Below are positions 35,332-45,708 of a stretch of DNA of 64,000 nucleotides, piece by piece; position 1 is the first letter of the stretch; every line of letters begins with the position of its first letter. Under the pieces are notes generated by a model, which saw nothing but the letters and a program-made list of their open reading frames with translations, made no database searches and was not told the origin of the DNA. Source of the DNA: an uncultured Acidimicrobiales bacterium (GTDB lineage: Bacteria; Actinomycetota; Acidimicrobiia; Acidimicrobiales; SZUA-35); the NCBI GenBank assembly GCA_963700755.1, contig CAVOYW010000005.1:181845-245844 (forward strand), written 5' to 3'. The translations under genes were made by a program, and so were the position numbers.

Positions 35332-36033
35332 GTGGATCTCGATCGGGTCTCGTCGACCAATCCCGACTTCGTGCCCTCCGAGGCGACGTCGGCCGTCGAT
35401 CTCTTCTGGATCCCACTCGGCGCCGGTTCGCCGATCGTGCAGGCGAGTGGCCGGGTGTTCGAGGCGATCGCGGCACGGCGTGACCGGCGACCCCGCTGCG
35501 ATCTGTACCACGCTGCGCTCGAGCTGCGAACCCCCGAGGGTCGCTTCGCCATCGAACAGGCACCGGTTCCCGACCACGATGGTGCGAGCCGGGGGGTGGT
35601 CGCCGCCGGTCCGGTCGGCCTGCGCTCGGCCGGTCGATTGCGCATCTTCCGCTACGAGGTCCGTTGCTGGCGGGACGGCTCGATCCCCGACATCGGTGCC
35701 GCCGTCGACAGTCCTGTTCGGCTGTCCACCGACCCGGCGGTCGGTTCGCACATCCTCGAGGTGTTGCCCGGCGTGCCGACGCCGGTCTGGGGGAGGGACG
35801 AGGCCGGTCTCGGCGACATGTGGAACTCGAACTCGGTGATCTCCTGGGTCCTCACGAGGAGCGGTCTCGACCTCGACGGGGTCGAACCTCCTCGAAGCGG
35901 CCGGGCGCCCGGATGGCTCGCCGGGCGGAAGCGGGCCGAGACACCCACCGGTCATCCGATCTCCGCCGATCCATCGCACACCGGGGTCGCAGACGTCGTT
36001 GCGTCTCCGACCAGAGCAAGGCAGGAATCATGA
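35332..36033 (+). CDS. Conserved actinobacterial hypothetical protein
   Basis: RBS GGAGG before GTG; VDLFWIPLGAG, YHAALE, FRYEVRCW, WNSNSVISW. Confidence 0.75.
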   Translation: MDLDRVSSTNPDFVPSEATSAVDLFWIPLGAGSPIVQASGRVFEAIAARRDRRPRCDLYHAALELRTPEGRFAIEQAPVPDHDGASRGVVAAGPVGLRSAGRLRIFRYEVRCWRDGSIPDIGAAVDSPVRLSTDPAVGSHILEVLPGVPTPVWGRDEAGLGDMWNSNSVISWVLTRSGLDLDGVEPPRSGRAPGWLAGRKRAETPTGHPISADPSHTGVADVVASPTRARQES

Positions 36034-37008
36034 ACACCACATCCCTCGTCGGCGAGGACGTTCGCTCGTCTCCGACCTCATCGAGTCCGTCTGCCGAAGG
36101 CCATGCGCTGGTGGTCGATCATGTCACCAAGCGCTACGGCGGCCACACCGTCGTCGACGACCTCAGCTTCACCGTGCCGCCCGGCCGGGTCACCGGGTTC
36201 CTCGGCCCGAACGGTTCGGGCAAGTCGACGACCATGAAGATCATGCTCGACCTGGCGTCGGCCGATCGTGGGCGGGCCTCGATCGGCGGCCACCGCTACC
36301 GCGAGCTGCCCGACCCGGCCCGCACGGTGGGTGCCATCATCGAATCCGACGCCTTCCACCCCGGCCGCAGCGGTCGCAACCATCTGCGGATCCTGGCCGA
36401 CGCCACCGGAATCGCCCGGGGCAGAGTCGACGAGATCCTCGAGCAGGTCGGTCTGGCCGACGCCGCCGATCGTCGAGCCGGCGCCTACTCGCTCGGCATG
36501 CGTCAGCGGCTCGGGCTGGCTGCCGCCCTGCTCGGCGAACCGCCGGTGCTCGTGCTCGACGAACCCGGCAACGGTCTCGATCCGCAGGGCATCCGGACGC
36601 TGCGCGATCTGCTCCGTGCCCACGCCGCGAACGGGGGGCACCGTCTTCGTGTCGAGTCACCTGCTCTCCGAGGTCGAACACCTCGCCGATGACGTCATCG
36701 TCGATCAATCAGGGTCGCCTCGTCGACCCAGGGCTCCCTGGCCGACGCTCCAGCAGGCGGCCTCGCTCGTCCGCACGCGCCGATGGCGGCCCGGCTCGGC
36801 GTGGCGCTCGAACAGGCCGGGGCGACCGCCCAGGTCCGAGGGCCCCGACGGGCTCGTCGTTCGGGGTATGCCGATCGACGAGATCGGTGAACGCGCCTTC
36901 GCCGCCGGGCTCGCGCTCCACGAGCTGTCACCCCACGCCGGGTCGCTCGAGGAACTGTTCCTGAACTGGACCACCGACCCATCGACCGAGGAGGTCATCG
37001 AGCTGTGA
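36030..37008 (+). CDS. ABC transporter ATP-binding protein (frameshifts at 36630-36840)
   Basis: GPNGSGKST, YSLGMRQRL, LDEPGNGLD; VSSHLLSEVE and SLEELF in a shifted frame. Confidence 0.9.
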
Positions 37009-37751
37009 CCATGTCCCGACTCATCCGAGCCGAGCTCCGCAAGCTCACCAGCACCAAGATGCCGTGGGCCTTCCTCGGGGTGCTCGTTGCGATCGCGGCC
37101 ATCAACGCGTTCGCCGTGGTCGCCGGGACCGACATGGACGGCAGCAAGACGTTCATCTCGACCGAGGCCGACCAGCAGTCGCTCATGGCGTTCGCGGCCA
37201 ACGCGTTCATGGGCGCCGGGCTGTTCGGCGCGATCGCCGTCGCCCGTGAATACGGGCATCACACCGTCGTTCCGACCTTCCTGGCCTCTCCTCGGCGCCA
37301 CCGGGCCGTGCTGGCCCAGCTCGTCGCCGTCGCGATCGGGGGCGCGGTCCTCAGCGTCGTCGGGGCCGGTCTGACGGTGGCTCGCGGTTGCGTTGTCACT
37401 GCCGACCACCGAGTACGGCTTCCTCGTCTCGATCGGCACGTCGTGCAGATCGTCGCCGCGTCGGGGTTCGCCGGTGCCGCCGGCGCCGTGCTCGGTGCGG
37501 GGATCGGCGCCGTGGTGCGCAACGTCGGCGGCGCGGTGACCACCACGGTGCTCGCGCTGATCGTCGCGCCGCCGCTGATCGTGCAACTGGCCAATGGCAC
37601 CGCTTCGTGGATGCCGAACGTGCTCGCGAACGTGCTCGCCGGGGTCGGCACCGAGGTCGGTCAGGCGGCGGCGATCGGTGCACTTGCCCTGTGGGCCCTG
37701 GTCCCGGCGCTCATCGGCCTCGTCCTCGTTCAGCGTCGCGACGTCGTCTGA
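37005..37751 (+). CDS. ABC-2 type exporter permease
   Basis: LIRAELRKL, AREYGHHT..PTFLASPRR, C-terminal QRRDV; probable compensating frameshifts at 37380-37435. Confidence 0.85.
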   Translation: MTMSRLIRAELRKLTSTKMPWAFLGVLVAIAAINAFAVVAGTDMDGSKTFISTEADQQSLMAFAANAFMGAGLFGAIAVAREYGHHTVVPTFLASPRRHRAVLAQLVAVAIGGAVLSVVGAGLTVARGCVVTADHRVRLPRLDRHVVQIVAASGFAGAAGAVLGAGIGAVVRNVGGAVTTTVLALIVAPPLIVQLANGTASWMPNVLANVLAGVGTEVGQAAAIGALALWALVPALIGLVLVQRRDVV

Positions 37752-37822: not shown

Positions 37823-38278
37823 TCAGTCCTCGAACAGCGACGGGGGGAACCCGCCCTTGCTCACCGGTCCCCATCGGGTCGGTGTGATGCGGATGATCGA
37901 CTTGCCCTGGTCGGCCATCGCCTGTCGGTACTCGTCCCAATCGGGATGTTCACCCTTGATGCAACGGAAGTACTCGACGAGCCCATCGGCGGCGTCGGGC
38001 ATGTCGAGTACCACCGCATCGCCGTCGATCTGGACCCAGGACGCATCGAAGTCGTCGCCCATGACCGCCACCGACACGAGCGGGTTGCGCCGGATGTTGC
38101 GGGCCTTGACCCGGGTCGGGTAGGTCGAGATCAACAGGTCTCCTTCGGGGGTGATGGTGCCGGTCACCAGGCTCATCTGCGGGCGACCGTCGGCCCGGGT
38201 GGTCGACAGCACCCACCGGTTCCGGCCGGTGACGAATTCGATCAGACCGGCCCGGTCGACCTCGACGTCACTCGACAT
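37823..38278 (-). CDS. PPOX class F420-dependent oxidoreductase
   Basis: VLSTTRADGRPQMS, KARNIRRNP, EHPDWDEYRQAM. Confidence 0.9.
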   Translation of the reverse strand: MSSDVEVDRAGLIEFVTGRNRWVLSTTRADGRPQMSLVTGTITPEGDLLISTYPTRVKARNIRRNPLVSVAVMGDDFDASWVQIDGDAVVLDMPDAADGLVEYFRCIKGEHPDWDEYRQAMADQGKSIIRITPTRWGPVSKGGFPPSLFED

Positions 38279-38316
38279 GTACTGGGCTCGGCGGTCGTCT
38301 CTCGGGATCTTCTTCA

Positions 38317-38721
38317 TCAGACGATGGGGAGGAGTCGTGAGTCTTCGAGGGCCGCGGTTCGGTGACCGATACCGGCCAGATACCCCGGATTCGACGCGAA
38401 GGCGAAGAAGTCGTCGAGGGATCGCTGACGAACGAGGAGCACGTGATCCCATCGCTCGTCGCCGGGTCCGATGAAGAAGGTGCCGCCGGTACCGTCGAGG
38501 ATCACCTCGCCCCCGCTCTCGACGAGGAAGGGCATCGTGTGATCGGCGTAGCGACGGTAGGCCTCGGCGCCCGAGATCGGGTGAGCGGGTTCGAGCTCGG
38601 GGCTGCCCGAGTAGTCCGCCACCTCGCGGAAGCGAAGCAGGTTGAGCATCGTGATCGGTCCGTCGATGCTGCGGGCGATGAGGCTCTGGGCACTCTCTGG
38701 GGTGGGATCGAAATAGGGCAC
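38317..38721 (-). CDS. DUF1330 family protein
   Basis: GPITMLNLLRFRE, ISGAEAYRRY, HRTAALEDSRLLP. Confidence 0.85.
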   Translation of the reverse strand: MPYFDPTPESAQSLIARSIDGPITMLNLLRFREVADYSGSPELEPAHPISGAEAYRRYADHTMPFLVESGGEVILDGTGGTFFIGPGDERWDHVLLVRQRSLDDFFAFASNPGYLAGIGHRTAALEDSRLLPIV

Positions 38722-38762
38722 CGGAGCATTGTGGCATCCGTGGGTGGTGGCCATCGGGTCGT

Positions 38763-40466
38763 TCAGCGTTTCGGAGGAGCACCGGTGCGCACGAACGCGA
38801 TGGCCTCGGCGACGTTTCGAGCGACGAATCGTTCCAATCGGGGGGCAGCCGCGAACCGGGCGGCGGCGGCCAGCGGAAGGCTCGAGCCGATCGTCAGGGC
38901 CTCGCGGCGGGCTGCTTCGGCCATCTTCACGATGTGAACGGTGACGATGAACGAGCCGGACCGGTCGCACATCGATGCCCGGCCGATGGCGTCGGCGACG
39001 GTCACGGGGTCGCCGGCGAGGCTGTGGGCGACGGCGTCGTCGGGGCGACGCTCGAGAATGGCGGCCTCGACGTCGCCCGGGCGGGGCTCTGGGACCGAGA
39101 GCACCGGGTCGTATCGTCGTGCTCGCTCGGCTCGACCGGTGTCGTGGGCCAGGAAGACCGTGAACAGGGCGAGGCGAGCCGTTGCCGCCGACGGGTGCTG
39201 CCGCCACGCCCACCGAGCGGCGTTGGCATAGGTCAGCCCGTGGGTGATGTCCAGCCACCCGAAGTCGTTCGTCGGGTCGAAATCCGTTGTCGAGTCGTAC
39301 CGCAGCAGCCGTTCGCTCACGGCGAGCGAGACCGTGTCGAGCAACCCCTCGATTCCGGCTCCGGCCACGACCGCGGCGGCCGCGGGCGCGATCGCCGCTT
39401 CGGGCTCGTCGAGCAGCGCCCGTCGCAGTTCGCCGTCATCGGCCCAGCCGGTCCGGCGCCGGTCTGCGGCACCGGCGAGGGCATCGAGGTCGGTGGCATC
39501 GATCATCCGCATCGCGGCCTTCATGTACGGCAACGTGTCCTCCCGGGTCGAGTGGGTGAGCGTCATGGCGAGCCACGGCAGAACCGCCGACGCATGATCG
39601 GTCCCGATCGCGTCGAGGAGTTCGAAGACCTTCTGGGTGTAGATGGCGCCGTGGCCGTAGCCGAGATGGTGTGCCGACGCTGCCTCGATCAGCTCGGCTC
39701 GAACCGAGACGAAGCCATCGCCGACCTCGAGCCGGCCGAGCACGGATGCCATGGCGCCGTCGGTGTCCTGGGCCTCGATCGCGGTGTTGAGATCGATGGT
39801 TGCATCCGGCTCGGGCAGGACCTGTCTGGGCCGGTCGCGTGCCGTTTCGGCGATTCCGGCGAGCGCCTGGGTCACCGGCAGTGTGGACTCGAGCCCGTCC
39901 CAGAGGTGGCCGAGCGCGAGGCAGTCGGCCGCCATGGCGAGCTCGTGACCGGGCCCGTATTCGATCCGGGGGAGCGCGTGGATCGCGGCAGCGGCGACGA
40001 TCTGGCTGGGACCGGCGCCGGCCTCGAGCAGCCGGGCGGTGTCGCGGGCGATCTGCCCCGGGTAGTCCCGATCCACTCCTCGCAGGAGACTCGGCCACAG
40101 TCGTTCCCGCCGCTCGGCGCTCGTCGCCTCGGTGATGGTGACAAGGACCTCACCGTCGACGACCTCGACCCCGTGGCAGGTGACGTCTTCCTCGCCGACC
40201 AGGCACCGACCGTCCTCGACGCGGTACCTCCAGTTGTGCCACCGGCAGGTCAGTACCTCACCCTCGAGGGTTCCCCGCACGAGTCCGTAGCCCTGGTGCG
40301 GGCAGGCGTTGTCGATCGCATGGAAACCCGATTCGGTTCGTACGAGCGCGACGGGGCGATTGCCGACCCGGACCATGCGTATCGATCCCACGGGGTGGGA
40401 GTCGGCGGTGCCGACGGATTCGGTCACGGTCGTCGCACGATCGGCGGCGGGCGTTGAGGTCGTCAT
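38763..40466 (-). CDS. Rieske [2Fe-2S] protein with large helical His-containing C-terminal region
   Basis: CPHQG...CRWHNW Rieske ligands; about 450 aa C-terminal region unlike a ring-hydroxylating catalytic domain. Confidence 0.85.
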   Translation of the reverse strand: MTTSTPAADRATTVTESVGTADSHPVGSIRMVRVGNRPVALVRTESGFHAIDNACPHQGYGLVRGTLEGEVLTCRWHNWRYRVEDGRCLVGEEDVTCHGVEVVDGEVLVTITEATSAERRERLWPSLLRGVDRDYPGQIARDTARLLEAGAGPSQIVAAAAIHALPRIEYGPGHELAMAADCLALGHLWDGLESTLPVTQALAGIAETARDRPRQVLPEPDATIDLNTAIEAQDTDGAMASVLGRLEVGDGFVSVRAELIEAASAHHLGYGHGAIYTQKVFELLDAIGTDHASAVLPWLAMTLTHSTREDTLPYMKAAMRMIDATDLDALAGAADRRRTGWADDGELRRALLDEPEAAIAPAAAAVVAGAGIEGLLDTVSLAVSERLLRYDSTTDFDPTNDFGWLDITHGLTYANAARWAWRQHPSAATARLALFTVFLAHDTGRAERARRYDPVLSVPEPRPGDVEAAILERRPDDAVAHSLAGDPVTVADAIGRASMCDRSGSFIVTVHIVKMAEAARREALTIGSSLPLAAAARFAAAPRLERFVARNVAEAIAFVRTGAPPKR

Positions 40467-40473
40467 GACGTCA

Positions 40474-40504
40474 TGTCTACAATCTCAAGTAATGTTGAGG
40501 TCAA
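40474..40504 (-). promoter_or_regulatory. SoxR-dependent MerR-type promoter with Sox box
   Basis: Minus strand TTGACC-19 bp-TAGACA; dyad TCTCAAGTAATGTTGAGG (40483-40500) resembles E. coli CCTCAAGTTAACTTGAGG. Confidence 0.85.
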
Positions 40505-40507
40505 GGG

Positions 40508-41029
40508 ATGCGTGACGATGTGACGAGTCCGGAGCCGGCCGAGCCGATGCTGGCCATCGGCCAGGTCGCGGAGCGAACCGGGCTCGCGGTCTCGGCGATT
40601 CGGTTCTACGAGGATCGTGGTCTGGTGCGGTCCGAGCGTTCGTCCTCGGGACATCGTCGATTCGGTCGCTCGGTGATCCGGCGCCTGTCCTTCATCATGG
40701 TCGCTCAACGCCTCGGCTACCGACTCGACGAGATCGCCACCCAACTCGACACCCTGCCCTCGTCGACGGCGCCGACCGACCAGGACTGGGAGCGACTCGC
40801 CACCGGATTCGAAGCCGAGTTGACCGCTCGCATCGAGGCACTCGTCGAATTGCGCGACAAGCTCGATGGGTGCATCGGCTGCGGCTGCCTCTCACTCAGC
40901 CACTGCGCGCTCTACAACGACAGCGATCGAGCGGCCGAGCGAGGTCCCGGCCCGCGCTACCTTCTGGGTGACCGGCCGCCGACCGTGGGGTCGGAGCGCC
41001 GGATCACGACTGAAGCAGGAGAACGATGA
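40508..41029 (+). CDS. soxR: Redox-sensitive transcriptional activator SoxR
   Basis: IGQVAERTGLAVSAIRFYE HTH and CIGCGCLSLSHC [2Fe-2S] motif; true start may be 40520 or 40547. Confidence 0.95.
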   Translation: MRDDVTSPEPAEPMLAIGQVAERTGLAVSAIRFYEDRGLVRSERSSSGHRRFGRSVIRRLSFIMVAQRLGYRLDEIATQLDTLPSSTAPTDQDWERLATGFEAELTARIEALVELRDKLDGCIGCGCLSLSHCALYNDSDRAAERGPGPRYLLGDRPPTVGSERRITTEAGER

Positions 41030-41427
41030 GCAACCGAACCCCGATCATTCCCGACGGCCACGAAGCCCACTATGACCGGTTCCACTTCGCCCCGGCCTTC
41101 CGGGTCGGCGACACCATCCACGTTTCGGGCATCATCGGAACCGGAGCCGACGGTCGGGTTCCCGCCGAGCCGAGCGACGAATTCGCCGCCGTGTTCACAC
41201 AGATGCAGGCGACGCTCGAGGCGGCTGGGGCTTCGCTCGACGATGTCGTCGAGCTCACGTCGTTCCATGTCGACCTCACGCAAATCGGTGCCTTCATGAA
41301 GGCCAAGGACGCCGCGATCGGCGAGCCGTACCCGGCCTGGACGGCCATCGGTTGCACCGGTCTGGTCGACCCGAAGGCGACCGTCGAGGTGAAGGCCACG
41401 GCGGTCGTCCACGGCTCTGCGAGGTAG
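41026..41427 (+). CDS. RidA/YjgF family protein
   Basis: FAPAFRVGDTIHVSG, YPAWTAIG..GL, VEVKATA; ATGA overlap with soxR. Confidence 0.9.
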   Translation: MSNRTPIIPDGHEAHYDRFHFAPAFRVGDTIHVSGIIGTGADGRVPAEPSDEFAAVFTQMQATLEAAGASLDDVVELTSFHVDLTQIGAFMKAKDAAIGEPYPAWTAIGCTGLVDPKATVEVKATAVVHGSAR

Positions 41428-41472: not shown

Positions 41473-42135
41473 TCAGCTGCCGGGCTGGACCACCCCCGTG
41501 TCGAAGGCGTAGACGATCGCTGCCGCCCGATCACGGACCCCGAGCTTGGCGAAGATCGACCCGACGTGGGTCTTGACGGTCGTCTCGGCAACGAAGAGCG
41601 AGCCGGCGATCTCGGTATTGGTTGCGCCGCGGGCCATGAGGCGGAGGACGTCCAGTTCTCGATCCGTCAACGCCTGCAGCTTCACCGCCGCTCGTTGCTG
41701 GGGAACGGCGATGGATCGGTACGACTCGAGGATCGGTCCGAGCAGGGAGCCGTCGATCCATGATCCACCGCCGGCCACCGTACGAACGGCCTCCACCAGG
41801 TTCTCCGGTGTCGCCGATTTGAGTTCGAAGCCGTTGGCGCCCGCTTCCACTGCGGCCCAGAGGATCTCGTCCTCTCCGAACGTGGTCAGGACCAGCACGG
41901 GCGGCCCGTCCGCAGCGCGGAGCTCGGCAGTCGCTCGAATCCCGTCGACACCCGGCATTCGGACGTCCATGCAGACGAGGTCCGGGCGATGTTCGGTCAC
42001 CGCGGCCCCGACCTCGGCGCCGTCGTCACATTCGGCGACGACCTCGATGTCGGGCTGCGCCCCGAGGATCATCTTCAGTCCGGCCCGAATGAGCGGTTGG
42101 TCGTCGACCAGGATGACACGGATCGATCCGCTCAC
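41473..42135 (-). CDS. NarL/LuxR family response regulator
   Basis: VILVDDQPLIR, MDVRMP, LTDRELDVL...TVKTHV. Confidence 0.95.
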   Translation of the reverse strand: MSGSIRVILVDDQPLIRAGLKMILGAQPDIEVVAECDDGAEVGAAVTEHRPDLVCMDVRMPGVDGIRATAELRAADGPPVLVLTTFGEDEILWAAVEAGANGFELKSATPENLVEAVRTVAGGGSWIDGSLLGPILESYRSIAVPQQRAAVKLQALTDRELDVLRLMARGATNTEIAGSLFVAETTVKTHVGSIFAKLGVRDRAAAIVYAFDTGVVQPGS

Positions 42136-43256
42136 GTTCGGACACCGCCTCCGGCCCCGGTGAGCACACTGGGGAGTTGCGCTTCGAGGACCCAGAGCCT
42201 TCCGACCACTGCGCCGCGGATGGAACCCCCGACCGCTTCGACCCGTTGCCGGAGCCCGTCGAGCCCCTGTCCCTGTGCCGTGCTCGTGATCGACGGTTGT
42301 GACCGGACCTCGTTCTCGATCCGCAGACTGACGTCGTCGCTGTCGATCGTCAAGGTGATCGATGCCCACGGTCGTGCTGCGTGTTTGGCCACGTTGGTGA
42401 GCGCCTCTCGCACGATGTCGTGCACGACGATTCCCGGACCCGAGTGCAATGATTCGATGGCGCCGTCGACGGTCAGATCGACCTGCATGCCGGCGTCGGT
42501 GTAGGTCTGGACGAGTCGTGCGAGTCCGCCCGCTTCGACCGGAACCAAGGTCACGGCGTCGGTTCGCATGAGGAGCAGGGCCTGGCGGAGGTCGTCCATG
42601 CCCCGGCGTCCGACCTCTTCGGCCTTCCGCAGCGCAGCGGCGGCTTCGACCTCCGACGGGCCCAGCATCGCCCGCGCCCCTCCGAGATGGAGCAGGACCA
42701 CGCTGAAACTGTGCCCGACGAGATCATGGAGCTCGCGGGCGATCCGCTGGCGTTCGTCCATCACGGCAGCTCGAGCGAGCAGGGATCGGCTTTCCTCGAG
42801 CTGGTCGATGAGGCCCCACTGTTGGCCGACGATGGCACCGAAGAGCCAGCCGAGGGCGATGCCGGCCATCCAGGTCCAGGGGCCGAGTTCCACGTAGTCG
42901 GGAACCCGGACCGCCCACAGCACGAGGGGGCTGACCAGGATCGTCGCCATGGCGAGATTGTCGCCGGTCGTCGGTCCATTGGCCGCAACGATCACCATGG
43001 CGACGATCACGACGAAATAGGCGTTCGTGGAGACATCGTTCGCTTCGCCGATCACCGTCGGAATCCCGACCCAGGCGAGGAGCACGAGTGCCGGCATCGT
43101 CCGCCAGACCGCCCGCAGCCCCATGGCCGGGAGGATCGCCAGCGCCGGGATCCAACCCCACCCGCTCACCGTGGCGAGATTCAAGATGCCGAACGCCGTG
43201 GCCAGGATTGCGGCACCGAACAGGAACTCGTCGCGATCTCGGAACACCGGGAGCAT
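42132..43256 (-). CDS. HisKA_3 membrane sensor histidine kinase
   Basis: ERQRIARELHDLVGH, REALTNVAKHA, GQGLDGLRQR. Confidence 0.93.
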   Translation of the reverse strand: MLPVFRDRDEFLFGAAILATAFGILNLATVSGWGWIPALAILPAMGLRAVWRTMPALVLLAWVGIPTVIGEANDVSTNAYFVVIVAMVIVAANGPTTGDNLAMATILVSPLVLWAVRVPDYVELGPWTWMAGIALGWLFGAIVGQQWGLIDQLEESRSLLARAAVMDERQRIARELHDLVGHSFSVVLLHLGGARAMLGPSEVEAAAALRKAEEVGRRGMDDLRQALLLMRTDAVTLVPVEAGGLARLVQTYTDAGMQVDLTVDGAIESLHSGPGIVVHDIVREALTNVAKHAARPWASITLTIDSDDVSLRIENEVRSQPSITSTAQGQGLDGLRQRVEAVGGSIRGAVVGRLWVLEAQLPSVLTGAGGGVRT

Positions 43257-43290
43257 CCCGACACTGTAAATCGCGGGTCGGCGACGTGGC

Positions 43291-43414
43291 ATCCGACGTC
43301 GGGGTCATCGCGTCCTCCTCCCGGGGGAGGAGCCGGCCGACCCGCTTGGGCCTCGGGTCCGACCTCGGGAAGGTCCTGTCCTCCGACGACGAGGTCGACC
43401 TCGATTCCTACCGT
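43291..43414. promoter_or_regulatory. Probable response-regulator sites and -10 box of the MMPL promoter
   Basis: Dyad CTCCTCCCGGGGGAGGAG near 43315-43332, three TCCGAC half-sites, TACCGT at 43409-43414. Confidence 0.45.
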
Positions 43415-43458
43415 CGACACCAGGCAATCGGGACGGTCCCGAGCCCAGAAAGGCAGTC

Positions 43459-45708
43459 ATGTTCACGAGACTCGGAGAGACGATCGTCCGGCGGACGAGG
43501 ATGGTGCTGTTCGGATCCGTGGTGGCCTTGGTCCTCACCGCCACCCTCGGTGTGGGTGTCTTCGGGGTGTTGGCCGGAGGGGGCTTCGACGACCCGTCGT
43601 CGGAGTCGAGTACCGCGCAGCGAGTGCTCGAAGAGGAGTTCGGTGCCGGTACGTCGAACCTCGTCCTGCTCGTGACGGCGATCTCGGGTGACATCGACGA
43701 CCCCGGGACGGTCGAGGCGGGGCTGGCCCTCACCGAGGAACTCGCCGCCGTGGACGGGGTGGAGGACGTGGGTTCGTACTGGAGGTTCGGATCCCCGCCG
43801 AGCCTGAGGTCCGAGGACGGGACCGCGGCGTTGGTGTTCGCCCGGACGGTCGGAGACGAGGACGCCCAGGAGGAGACGACGTCGTGGGTCGTCGAGGAAT
43901 TCGCCGGCGAGCGCGACGGCTTCACCGTCGAGGTGGGAGGGGTGGGTGCCGTCTACGCCGGCATCGGCCAGACCGTCGAGGAGGATCTCGCCCTGGCCGA
44001 GATGATCGCCATTCCGCTGACCCTCGTTCTGCTCGTGATCGTGTTCCGCGGCGTCGTCGCCGCCCTCCTTCCGCTCGCCGTCGGCGTCTCGGCGATCTTC
44101 GGTGCGTTCTTCGTGCTCTGGGCGATTGCGCAGTTCACCGACGTGTCGATCTTCTCGATCAACCTGGTCACCGCCCTCGGCCTGGGCCTCGCCATCGACT
44201 ACAGCCTGCTGATCGTCTCCCGTTTCCGGGAGGAGCTCGACGCCGGGCGCTCCGTCGAGGAGGCCACGGTACGCACCGTCGAGACCGCCGGGCGCACGGT
44301 CGCCTTCTCGGGTCTGACCGTCGCCGTGTCGCTCGTTGCGCTGGTTGCCTTTCCGCTGTACTTCCTTCGGTCGTTCGCCTACGCCGGAGTCGGGGTGCTC
44401 CTGGTGGCGATGGTGTCGTCGGTGGTCACGCTTCCCGCCCTGCTCCGTGTCCTGGGCCCTCGGGTCAACGCCTGGTCGCTGAAGGGGGGCCGCGGACGTG
44501 GATCGGAATCGGCGATGTGGGCCCGCGCCGCCGAGCTGGTCCTGCGTCGCCCGGCCGTGGTTGCGGTGGCTGTCGTCGGCATCCTCGTGTTCGTCGGCGC
44601 ACCGTTCCTGCGGGTCACCTTCGGCAACAGCGACGAGCGTGTTCTCCCGGCGAACCATCCCGCTCGGGTCGCCACCGAGAACATCCAGCGCCAGTTCGCC
44701 TCCGACGAGTCCGCGGCCTTCCCGATCGTGGTGACCGAGGAAGCTCCCGGCGCCGTTCTCGACGACTATGCAGCCCGGGTGTCCATGGTCGACGGTGTCG
44801 CCCGGGTGACCATGGTCAACGGGACGTGGGTCGATGGGGCACGAGTCGCACCGGCCGATTCGACGTCGGCGCAGTACGCCGCCGAGTCGGGAACCTGGAT
44901 GAGCGTGATCCCCGAGGACCATCCGATGTCGACCGAGGCGCAGGCCGCCGTGACCGAGATCCGTGCGATCGACACCCCCCTCGATGCCGCCGTCGCCGGC
45001 GAGACGGCCCAGCTGATCGACACCAAGACGGCGATCTTCTCGGTGGCCCCGTGGGCCGGGGCGTGGATCGCCGGAGCCACGTTCGTGCTCCTGTTCCTCA
45101 TGTTCGGAAGCTTCCTGGTGCCGTTGAAGGCGATCATCCTCAACAGCCTGAGCCTCACGGCCACCTTCGGGGCCATGGTCTGGATCTTCCAGGACGGCAA
45201 CTTCTCGGGTCTGCTCGACTTCACCGCCACCGGCCTCACCGACGTCTCGATGCCGATCCTGATGTTCGCCATCGCCTTCGGCCTGTCGATGGACTACGAG
45301 GTGTTCCTGCTGGCCCGCATGAAGGAGGAGTACGACCGCACCGGTGACAACCACGCGGCGATCGTCGCCGGCCTGGCCAAGACCGGCCGGATCGTGACCG
45401 CGGCGGCCCTCGTCCTGTCGGTCACGTTCTTCGCCTTCGCCAGCGGTGGGATCACGTTCATGAAGCTCTTCGGCCTCGGCTTGGGCATCGCCGTCCTGGT
45501 CGATGCATTCCTGGTTCGGGCCACCCTGGTCCCGGCGCTGATGCAGATGGCCGGCTCGGCGAACTGGTGGGCTCCGGCATGGGCCCGGCAGATCCACGAC
45601 CGCTTCGGCATCGACGAGAGCGGCCGTGACGCCGACCCGTCGGCCGAGGACCGACCCGCGGAGGTCGGCGAGGTCGTGGAGGTCAGGGAGCCGGTGCTCA
45701 CTCGCTAG
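43459..45708 (+). CDS. MMPL (RND) family transporter
   Basis: GLAIDYSLLIVSRFREE, TAGRTVAFSG, FGLSMDYEVFLLARMKEE. Confidence 0.95.
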   Translation: MFTRLGETIVRRTRMVLFGSVVALVLTATLGVGVFGVLAGGGFDDPSSESSTAQRVLEEEFGAGTSNLVLLVTAISGDIDDPGTVEAGLALTEELAAVDGVEDVGSYWRFGSPPSLRSEDGTAALVFARTVGDEDAQEETTSWVVEEFAGERDGFTVEVGGVGAVYAGIGQTVEEDLALAEMIAIPLTLVLLVIVFRGVVAALLPLAVGVSAIFGAFFVLWAIAQFTDVSIFSINLVTALGLGLAIDYSLLIVSRFREELDAGRSVEEATVRTVETAGRTVAFSGLTVAVSLVALVAFPLYFLRSFAYAGVGVLLVAMVSSVVTLPALLRVLGPRVNAWSLKGGRGRGSESAMWARAAELVLRRPAVVAVAVVGILVFVGAPFLRVTFGNSDERVLPANHPARVATENIQRQFASDESAAFPIVVTEEAPGAVLDDYAARVSMVDGVARVTMVNGTWVDGARVAPADSTSAQYAAESGTWMSVIPEDHPMSTEAQAAVTEIRAIDTPLDAAVAGETAQLIDTKTAIFSVAPWAGAWIAGATFVLLFLMFGSFLVPLKAIILNSLSLTATFGAMVWIFQDGNFSGLLDFTATGLTDVSMPILMFAIAFGLSMDYEVFLLARMKEEYDRTGDNHAAIVAGLAKTGRIVTAAALVLSVTFFAFASGGITFMKLFGLGLGIAVLVDAFLVRATLVPALMQMAGSANWWAPAWARQIHDRFGIDESGRDADPSAEDRPAEVGEVVEVREPVLTR

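Follow-up and report, generated by a model that had tools for sequence, protein, structure and literature searches.

A SoxR-linked gene of an uncultured Acidimicrobiales bacterium encodes a Rieske-fused protein predicted to be a BTG13-type non-heme-iron oxygenase

In a 64,000-nucleotide (nt) stretch of DNA from an uncultured Acidimicrobiales bacterium (contig CAVOYW010000005.1; hereafter, the window), a soxR gene encoding a MerR-family [2Fe-2S] redox-sensing activator (40508 to 41029, plus strand) lies back to back with an open reading frame (ORF) for a protein of 567 amino acids (aa; 38763 to 40466, minus strand), which can be aligned over its whole length with homologues of 51 to 66% identity. 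Coordinates are those of the whole window, position 1 being its first letter, and strand is given for each gene. The protein joins an N-terminal Rieske domain to a helical domain whose predicted fold and invariant residues recall those of the fungal dioxygenase BTG13. We favor, with some confidence, the reading that it is a SoxR-activated, Rieske-fused BTG13-type non-heme-iron oxygenase, made from a probably leaderless mRNA, that degrades redox-cycling (hydro)quinone-like compounds; its gene is hereafter called the oxygenase gene, after this predicted function. On the evidence of sequence and structural models, the gene is genuine, conserved and linked to a regulator, and its product is a variant of a known enzyme class, with a chemistry that is predicted.

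The case for SoxR control starts from soxR itself, whose product matches the NCBIfam model TIGR01950 with 181.4 bits (cut-off 116.9) over model positions 2 to 140 of 142, and which is the single copy above that cut-off in the 5.42-Mb assembly to which the window belongs. Its translation carries CIGCGCLSLSHC, the C-terminal [2Fe-2S] motif, which has been described for SoxR as CIGCGCxxxxxC (PMC6300522). The intergenic gap (40467 to 40507) measures 41 bp, a figure that depends on the choice of soxR start, the TIGR01950 match beginning at residue 15; we retained the start at 40508 because GAGG is found 7 nt upstream and because there is a promoter-like site on the plus strand. Read on the minus strand, the gap holds a SoxR-type promoter (40474 to 40504) in which a -35 element, TTGACC (40499 to 40504), and a -10 element, TAGACA (40474 to 40479), are separated by 19 bp around a Sox-box dyad, CCTCAACATTACTTGAGA (40483 to 40500), that lies inside the spacer region. 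Both elements point at the oxygenase gene, whose ATG (40464 to 40466, minus strand) begins 7 nt past the -10. The initial annotation of this DNA had listed the gap, the two hexamers with their 19-bp spacer, the dyad and an ATG about 7 nt past the -10, and all of them can be read in the sequence. The dyad agrees at 14 of 18 positions with what we take to be the E. coli soxS box.

The promoter stands out by its score as well. With a 31-nt position matrix, built from sites at related loci that fit a loose pattern, it scores 36.3, while none of 1,439 control segments taken at these loci exceeds -6.5. Across the 5.42-Mb assembly, the sole site scoring at least 20 is the one in front of the oxygenase gene, and only one other scores at least 5, at 6.0. 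Taken together, these features make it very probable, as far as sequence can tell, that SoxR activates the predicted promoter of the oxygenase gene. Transcription usually begins about 6 to 7 nt past a -10, and because the ATG lies about there, the oxygenase mRNA is probably leaderless. On the plus strand, a consensus scan found one promoter-like site, TTGAGG-18-TACAAT (40454 to 40483; one site vs. 0.3 expected), which may be the soxR promoter and which overlaps both the box and, on the opposite strand, the -10 of the oxygenase gene.

This architecture recurs at related loci. Among species-representative genomes, 444 stretches encode a relative of the 567-aa protein, and we analyzed the best 80, which come nearly all from metagenome bins of Acidimicrobiia/Acidimicrobiales; promoter counts refer to the 78 of these 80 loci whose upstream region spans 120 nt or more. 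The recurring arrangement is TTGAC-Y, a 19-bp spacer with the dyad, TA-N4 and then the ATG. A soxR gene is found within the 4-kb flanks of 30 of the best 80 of 444 loci and is both divergent and adjacent in 27. The matrix score exceeds 20 at 51 of the 78 loci: the box is present in all 27 with a divergent adjacent soxR, in all three where soxR lies farther away within 4 kb and in 21 of the 48 where soxR is missing from the 4-kb flanks. For all five checked genomes with a box but without an adjacent soxR, a SoxR scoring above the cut-off is encoded at another place in the genome, compared with one of five box-less genomes, these being bins, so that absence is soft. The position of the start codon is kept too, with the first in-frame start 6 to 7 nt past the -10 at 40 of the 51 sites; at ten remaining sites, spurious earlier starts fall within the hexamer, and the ATG stands by eye at 6 to 8 nt. 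In a tree of 73 rows, built quickly by maximum likelihood and leaving out five of the 78 loci (less than 480 aa translatable), the box marks 47 rows. Because it is spread over every major clade, with at least 8 to 11 label changes, the pattern fits an old SoxR control that has been lost repeatedly. The SoxR control claimed in the initial annotation is thus supported, as far as computation can tell, by the survey of homologues that it had proposed as a check.

Several loci illustrate how this control might have been replaced or lost. Upstream of the oxygenase gene at the 27 box-less loci, 22 ORFs were scanned, of which six encode winged-helix ArsR/MarR-like proteins and three SRPBCC proteins. 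The divergent neighbor at box-less loci L011, L022, L023, L025, L051 and L081 is a winged-helix (ArsR/MarR-like) regulator of 212 to 239 aa, and L022, L023, L025 and L081 have another upstream motif in common, TTGTCTTGACAAAT...; as judged from these sequences, box-less loci suggest that the regulator was swapped and the enzyme retained. At L047, L048, L053, L055 and L066, an SRPBCC 'Polyketide_cyc2' gene of 163 to 167 aa follows 9 to 28 nt behind soxR. The same SRPBCC gene is directly divergent from the oxygenase gene in the sister loci L054, L058 and L059, which have no soxR, and L054 keeps a decayed Sox box scoring 11.8, so that the three look like cases of recent soxR deletion. L039, on a contig labelled Verrucomicrobiales, has a homologue and a Sox box nested deep in an Acidimicrobiales clade; either the contig is mis-binned or the gene was transferred, probably.

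The N terminus of the protein (residues 1 to 112; 40131 to 40466, minus strand) is a Rieske domain, as the initial annotation had recognized. It matches Pfam PF00355 with an expect value (E) of 1.1e-13 (51.3 bits, cut-off 20.3) and contains the motifs CPH (55 to 57) and CRWH (74 to 77), whose cluster ligands C55, H57, C74 and H77 are invariant among the closer homologues. Foldseek matched it to Rieske ferredoxins with template-modeling (TM) scores, normalized to the target, of 0.75 to 0.88, including 5bok (E 4.6e-6, TM(target) 0.87). The CxH...CxxH pattern is found in 88 of 93 diverse homologues, and the other five are stand-alone helical domains. Besides the cluster ligands, 34 closer homologues share G91, E92, E93 and H98 without exception, and in a set of 94 sequences one Glu remains more than 90% conserved; judging from this conservation, residues 91 to 98 may form a contact or an electron path to the iron domain. 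As to variation in domain architecture, P0170 (914 aa), P0242 (833 aa) and P0244 (1181 aa) have 260 to 345 additional N-terminal residues, unmatched in Pfam, ahead of the Rieske domain, while P0142, P0159, P0189, P0232 and P0253 (447 to 479 aa) are without a Rieske domain and keep all the ligand residues described below.

The remainder of the protein (residues 113 to 567; 38766 to 40130, minus strand) is the putative catalytic part. Residues 118 to 567 have no match to any Pfam family at E <= 10, the ring-hydroxylating-oxygenase catalytic domain included, in agreement with the initial annotation, which had seen no recognizable domain of that kind. Matches in NCBIfam and among PDB sequences end with the Rieske part (residues ~15 to 119), and a search of the ESM Atlas with the helical domain returned unnamed clusters only. 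We therefore reject a canonical Rieske oxygenase, there being no catalytic-domain match beyond the Rieske part and the fold being helical. The helical domain alone defines 549 clusters at 50% identity, in nearly all of which it begins ~110 to 130 residues into a protein of ~560 to 600 aa, and NCBI labels the members of this family just 'Rieske (2Fe-2S) protein'.

It is structure that connects the helical domain to a known enzyme class. AlphaFold modeled the full-length protein with a predicted local distance difference test (pLDDT) of 90.9 and a predicted TM score (pTM) of 0.88, the latter suggesting a defined domain arrangement in the model, and the helical domain, on an alignment of 94 sequences, with a pLDDT of 96.6 and a pTM of 0.95. 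When the whole model was used as a query, Foldseek matched the Rieske domain only and did not see the helical domain; with the helical domain alone, it ranked PaD, BTG13 and BruN at probabilities 0.5 to 0.8. An exhaustive comparison of structures with VIA-align, covering 48,161 chains, placed BTG13 (7y3w) first, with a Z score of 18.7 and a root-mean-square deviation (rmsd) of 3.8 over 314 aligned residues, followed by PaD (8z4q; Z 15.7), the next chain scoring 9.5. A second structural search gave 7y3x (18.9), 8yxs (BruN; 18.2), 8z4r (15.8) and 8z4q (15.7), the next being at 9.4. All the chains above Z 9.5 belong to DUF4243 'questin oxidase' dioxygenases, with 314 to 331 residues aligned and only 11 to 12% identity to the BTG13-class structures. 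The suggestion in the initial annotation that an AlphaFold model be compared with questin oxidase/DUF4243 therefore led to BTG13, BruN and PaD, at Z scores of 15.7 to 18.9.

The residues that coordinate iron in these enzymes have candidates here. Four His motifs are present, GPGHEL (H174), GYGHGAIY (H272), DITHGLTY (H409) and VTVHIVK (H511), and in the conservation alignment of 94 sequences (the query and 93 homologues of 27 to 55% identity) seven columns, and no others, show the same residue in 94 of 94: H174, H272, H409, T412, H511, K514 and P313. Two other positions are nearly so, D181 (Asp in 89 of 94) and H266 (His in 93 of 94). The four-His set pointed out in the initial annotation is thus conserved in all these diverse homologues, and what had been overlooked is a fifth candidate, K514, which lies inside VTVHIVK. 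BTG13-class enzymes have been reported to bind iron through four His, a carboxylated Lys (Kcx) and water (PMC12173810, PMC11951088, PMC11371914, PMC11575538), the ligands being H63, H166, H317, H394 and Kcx397 in PaD (PMC11371914) and H63, H166, H308, H386 and Kcx389 in BruN (PMC11575538). In domain numbering, the five candidates are H63, H161, H298, H400 and K403, in the same order as in PaD and BruN, with similar spacing overall and identical HxxK spacing. In BTG13, Kcx377 is hydrogen-bonded to His58 and Thr299 (PMC12173810, PMC11951088). Here T412 is found three residues past H409 (HxxT) in 94 of 94 sequences, by position a candidate equivalent of Thr299. The helical domain (within the gene at 38763 to 40466, minus strand) would accordingly carry a putative 4-His-1-carboxylysine iron site of the BTG13 type, with H174, H272, H409, H511 and a presumably carboxylated K514 as ligands and T412 in the second sphere. 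Short motifs set side by side look alike as well: GYGH-GAI vs. GATH-PVI in Streptomyces proteins of the 'questin oxidase family' and GAYH-PVI in 8yxs, H-GLT-YANA vs. H-AAT-APNA and H-IVK vs. H-AIK in the Streptomyces proteins. A MAFFT co-alignment likewise places H272, H409 to T412 and H511 to K514 on the Streptomyces motifs.

Together with published work, these features suggest how the system might operate. SoxR is activated by redox-cycling compounds themselves, and non-enteric SoxR directly runs few genes, which handle such compounds (PMC6300522, PMC4146615). BTG13-type enzymes act on hydroquinones made by a partner quinone reductase (PMC11575538), and PaD cleaves a monocyclic hydroquinone without cofactor or partner (PMC11371914). 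We propose that the two genes form a module for redox defense, that a quinone- or phenazine-like redox cycler would oxidize the [2Fe-2S] cluster of SoxR sitting on the 18-bp dyad, and that oxidized SoxR would remodel the promoter with its over-long 19-bp spacer, so that transcription would start at or beside the ATG and yield a leaderless oxygenase mRNA. The cell, or here an F420H2-dependent PPOX-class enzyme of the operon, might reduce the compound to a hydroquinone, a role that would parallel those of GedF, BTG7 and BruM for the fungal enzymes. A mononuclear Fe(II), held by four His and a probably carboxylated Lys whose carbamate the Thr would hold, would then bind O2 and open the hydroquinone-type ring. 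The substrate would be the reduced form of the very agent that triggers SoxR, and the redox cycler would be removed irreversibly, not exported. Single electrons would come from the fused Rieske domain and serve to hold the iron at, or bring it back to, Fe(II) under oxidizing conditions or else to reduce a quinone substrate. The claim in the initial annotation of a Rieske/His-metal enzyme acting on redox-active small molecules holds up computationally to this extent, through the fold match and the His conserved in 94 of 94 sequences. Going further, it is conceivable, though we doubt it, that the locus exemplifies a new Rieske-oxygenase architecture, with the cluster wired to a helical 4-His-1-carboxylysine iron, and that this protein is the principal, and often the only, SoxR effector in Acidimicrobiia.

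A number of observations weigh against reading the protein as a SoxR-controlled BTG13-type dioxygenase. On the regulatory side, 27 of the 78 loci are without the box, and a distant subgroup, L108 to L114 (25 to 29% identity), has neither the box nor soxR in its flanks. The matrix is moreover circular for the loci surveyed, being derived from sites that it scored; four loci outside it (L100, L103, L104 and L105, from a separate sample), each with an adjacent divergent soxR, score 32.5 to 49.3. The assembly itself is ~80% complete and has a probable indel error nearby, and all the genomes studied are metagenome bins. On the side of the enzyme, Pfam PF14027 (DUF4243/Questin_oxidase) is matched neither by this protein at E <= 10 nor by 71 homologues at E <= 0.1, a helical-domain profile searched against PDB sequences found no solved DUF4243 enzyme (phmmer likewise gave no name), and Foldseek with the helical domain alone returned no PDB match at E <= 0.001. 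PF14027 was absent from a search of this genome, and it was matched in just 3 of 301 sampled Actinomycetota genomes. An hhalign comparison with a Streptomyces DUF4243 profile gave probabilities of 0.25 to 1.4%, which is noise; one local alignment set HxxK on HAIK, at a probability of 0.25%, and carries no weight alone. In the MAFFT co-alignment, the 11 to 12 shared invariant columns compare with 7 to 9 in reversed or rotated controls, a weak excess. These tests of sequence kinship are low in power because even the Streptomyces profile detects the fungal 8yxs no better than at E 0.018. Since no statistical sequence method backs the kinship, we do not file the helical domain in Pfam DUF4243 and call it a distant relative, of the same structural class and with the same ligand set. 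A last point concerns the chemistry: because PaD cleaves hydroquinones without cofactor or partner, an obligatory fused Rieske domain argues, by analogy, for a stoichiometry possibly other than that of plain dioxygenation.

That point leads to the foremost alternative, a reductant-dependent mono-oxygenase or hydroxylase, a functional analogue of Rieske oxygenases with regulation and iron site unchanged, in which each turnover would draw two external electrons through the Rieske domain to the 4-His-1-Kcx iron. That iron would add oxygen to the redox-active aromatic, by hydroxylation or otherwise, and no hydroquinone ring would be cleaved. We hold this to be rather unlikely, yet serious because PaD does without electron help. 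Of 93 homologues, 88 retain the Rieske domain, while the fungal dioxygenases, once given a hydroquinone, need no electron donor (PMC11371914, PMC11575538); the family is chemically diverse, OzmD performing oxygen insertion and rearrangement (PMC12173810), and the SoxR targets PA2274 and SCO1909 are mono-oxygenases (PMC4146615). However, all four solved relatives of known function cleave hydroquinone C-C bonds, and no reductase gene is conserved beside the oxygenase gene.

Two further alternatives strike us as very improbable, to a like degree. The four His, the Lys and D181 might build a different metal center, for instance a binuclear one with a carbamylated Lys, as in amidohydrolases and urease, in a protein that is no oxygenase and whose Rieske domain is structural or regulatory. 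A carbamylated Lys bridges two metals among His in urease and phosphotriesterase (PMC11951088), and D181 and H266, at 89 and 93 of 94, amount to a surplus of potential ligands over what a mononuclear site needs. The fold, however, is that of all-helical BTG13 and not a TIM barrel, the ligand order and the HxxK/HxxT spacing fit the mononuclear sites of PaD and BruN, and a redox-sensing regulator with a fused redox domain suits redox chemistry better. Alternatively, the protein might be no detoxifying enzyme at all and act as a redox relay or sensor, or as an iron or Fe-S repair factor induced by redox stress, a view with which the inconsistency of downstream genes between loci would agree; against it, a ligand set invariant in 94 of 94 sequences is what would be expected of a catalytic metal site under selection, and the nearest solved folds are all enzymes. 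That the Sox box serves soxR autoregulation only, leaving the Rieske gene outside SoxR control, is close to refuted: a promoter-like site on the plus strand does overlap the box here, much as the E. coli soxR promoter overlaps that of soxS and SoxR represses itself, but at 21 of 48 loci without soxR within 4 kb the box keeps the same register to the oxygenase ATG and cannot serve soxR there, and the -35, -10 and 19-bp spacer are oriented toward the oxygenase gene.

The genes around the pair vary between loci. Eight nt beyond the oxygenase stop lies a small DUF1330-like gene (145 aa; 38317 to 38754, minus strand) with a weak match to Pfam PF07045 (E 0.0017, 19.1 bits, under the cut-off of 23), and 14 nt further along, on the same strand, a gene for an F420-dependent PPOX-class oxidoreductase (159 aa; 37823 to 38302; TIGR03618, 121.2 bits vs. 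a cut-off of 79.05). The DUF1330-like gene is probably co-transcribed with the oxygenase gene, and the PPOX gene is probably the last of the operon. The genome also encodes CofE, the F420 ligase (PF01996 at 191.6 bits), and the PPOX-class enzyme is a candidate quinone-to-hydroquinone reductase partner. Both genes recur only in the closest relative, L013, one of 80 loci (tblastn, E <= 1e-5). On the other side, the soxR stop (41027 to 41029) shares 4 nt (ATGA) with the ATG (41026 to 41028) of a Rid (YjgF/RidA) family gene (41026 to 41427, plus strand; PF01042, 77.5 bits). The overlap of soxR with a RidA gene noted in the initial annotation is therefore real as to the 4 nt, whereas the gene falls below the model for RidA proper (TIGR00004, 37.2 bits vs. 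a cut-off of 106.25) and belongs to the broad PF01042 family only. Since a Rid gene stands next to soxR at just one of 80 related loci, again L013 (tblastn, E <= 1e-5), we reject it as part of a conserved module; its inclusion in the system by the initial annotation comes down to a lineage-specific coupling.

A conserved operon partner is likewise rejected, the downstream genes differing between loci. Scanning 37 of the 65 ORFs found downstream of the oxygenase gene gave four DrrA-type ATP-binding cassette (ABC) ATPases, four short-chain dehydrogenases, three AIM24 proteins and one each of an MFS pump, a luciferase-like protein and five other families, with no family for 19. Behind soxR, where 21 of the 22 ORFs found were scanned, there were five SRPBCC 'polyketide cyclase' genes at 9 to 28 nt, three Cys/Met pyridoxal phosphate (PLP) enzymes, two methylpurine glycosylases, two LtrA, one apiosidase-like and one Rid (L013), with no family for seven. 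Going by these family assignments, the non-conserved neighbors lend mild support to a handling of aromatics or quinones. As for its spread, the family is present in 17 of 401 sampled Actinomycetota genomes, this genome included; genome G148 enters only that tally and the distant loci L108 to L114.

Other genes in the window are mentioned for completeness. The region adjoining the Rid gene (41473 to 45708) holds a LuxR-type response regulator (41473 to 42120, minus strand), a HisKA_3 histidine kinase (42132 to 43292, minus strand) and a divergent MMPL transporter (43459 to 45708, plus strand), and no link of these regulator, kinase and transporter genes to the SoxR module was seen. An ABC-transporter ATPase gene (35900 to 37010, plus strand), upstream of an ABC-2 permease (37005 to 37751), changes frame at a run of six G (36633 to 36638), where ...AANGG goes on as TVFVSSHLLSEVEHL in another frame. 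An additional shift seems to follow near 36700. Either the gene is a pseudogene or the assembly has a homopolymer indel error there.

Literature searches place the locus largely outside what has been published. In the literature collection searched, no publication was found that joins SoxR with DUF4243, BTG13, GedK or questin oxidase, in keeping with the initial annotation, to which no description of this SoxR target class was known, and none was found that joins DUF4243 with Rieske proteins, supplements being outside the scope of that search. Nothing related came up for SoxR, Rieske and regulon together; no SoxR regulon study in Acidimicrobiia, and nothing pertinent that connects SoxR to a hydroquinone dioxygenase, to ring cleavage or to redox-cycling, was found as judged by title and abstract. 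A review of BTG13-related enzymes deals with fungi, plants and OzmD, and in the portions of it on which we draw, bacterial Rieske fusions are not mentioned (PMC12173810).

If the proposed function is correct, its implications reach beyond this locus. The SoxR repertoire of pumps, reductases and small mono-oxygenases would gain a degradative enzyme. On the wider reading that we doubt, with this protein as the principal SoxR effector in Acidimicrobiia, abundant actinobacteria of soil, sediment and sea would counter phenazines and quinones by destroying the ring and not by efflux or reduction, an undescribed mechanism of resistance against redox-active natural products. To our knowledge, recognition of the 4-His-1-carboxylysine iron site goes back no further than 2022, and nearly all known examples come from natural-product pathways of fungi; recognizing a large bacterial family (549 clusters, 444 stretches) that Pfam does not see would greatly widen BTG13 chemistry. 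The Rieske fusion would amount to a built-in electron supply without counterpart in known BTG13-type enzymes, and the SoxR switch hints at redox cyclers as substrates. This yields a prediction, open to testing, on how members of a little-studied class, represented here by metagenome bins only, survive in phenazine- or quinone-rich settings. The locus itself shows the arrangement with an adjacent soxR in archetypal form and a predicted regulon of a single promoter, and its study adds the finding that the box and soxR tend to occur together and the pattern of regulator replacement.

Compared with known systems, the protein resembles most closely the class of BTG13, GedK, BruN (AflY-like), PaD and OzmD (7Y3W, 8YXS, 8Z4Q), with which it has in common an all-helical fold in a domain of ~450 aa, four His and a Lys in the same order, the HxxK spacing, a Thr three residues past the third His and, in some loci, a quinone-reducing partner nearby. 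It differs from that class in that identity is 11 to 12% with no PF14027 or profile-level signal, in its fused N-terminal Rieske domain, which is reported for none of the described members, and in being bacterial, mostly from Acidimicrobiia, and linked to a stress regulator and not to a natural-product gene cluster. With Rieske non-heme-iron oxygenases (the alpha subunits of naphthalene, carbazole and phthalate dioxygenases, KshA and NdmA), it shares an N-terminal Rieske domain fused to a predicted mononuclear-iron domain and a presumed flow of electrons from cluster to iron, whereas their 2-His-1-carboxylate catalytic domain is lacking and the fold is helical.

The regulatory side also has its parallels. 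Non-enteric SoxR has its box between the -35 and -10 and a very small direct set of targets that handle redox-active aromatics, namely SCO7008, SCO1909, SCO1178, SCO4266, SCO2478 and SCO0320ext in S. coelicolor and mexGHI-opmD, PA3718 and PA2274 in P. aeruginosa (PMC4146615). The set is equally tiny here, with one promoter in the assembly, while the described targets (pumps, reductases and small mono-oxygenases) include no Rieske protein and no dioxygenase of the DUF4243 type. As for the Rieske domain, there is a precedent in catechol catabolism, where XylT-type ferredoxins re-reduce the iron of catechol 2,3-dioxygenase and so reactivate the enzyme. The role proposed here, which is to maintain a ring-cleaving dioxygenase in its Fe(II) state, would be analogous in function to that of XylT, with the difference that XylT is a separate ferredoxin of the plant type and the Rieske domain is fused to the enzyme that it would serve.

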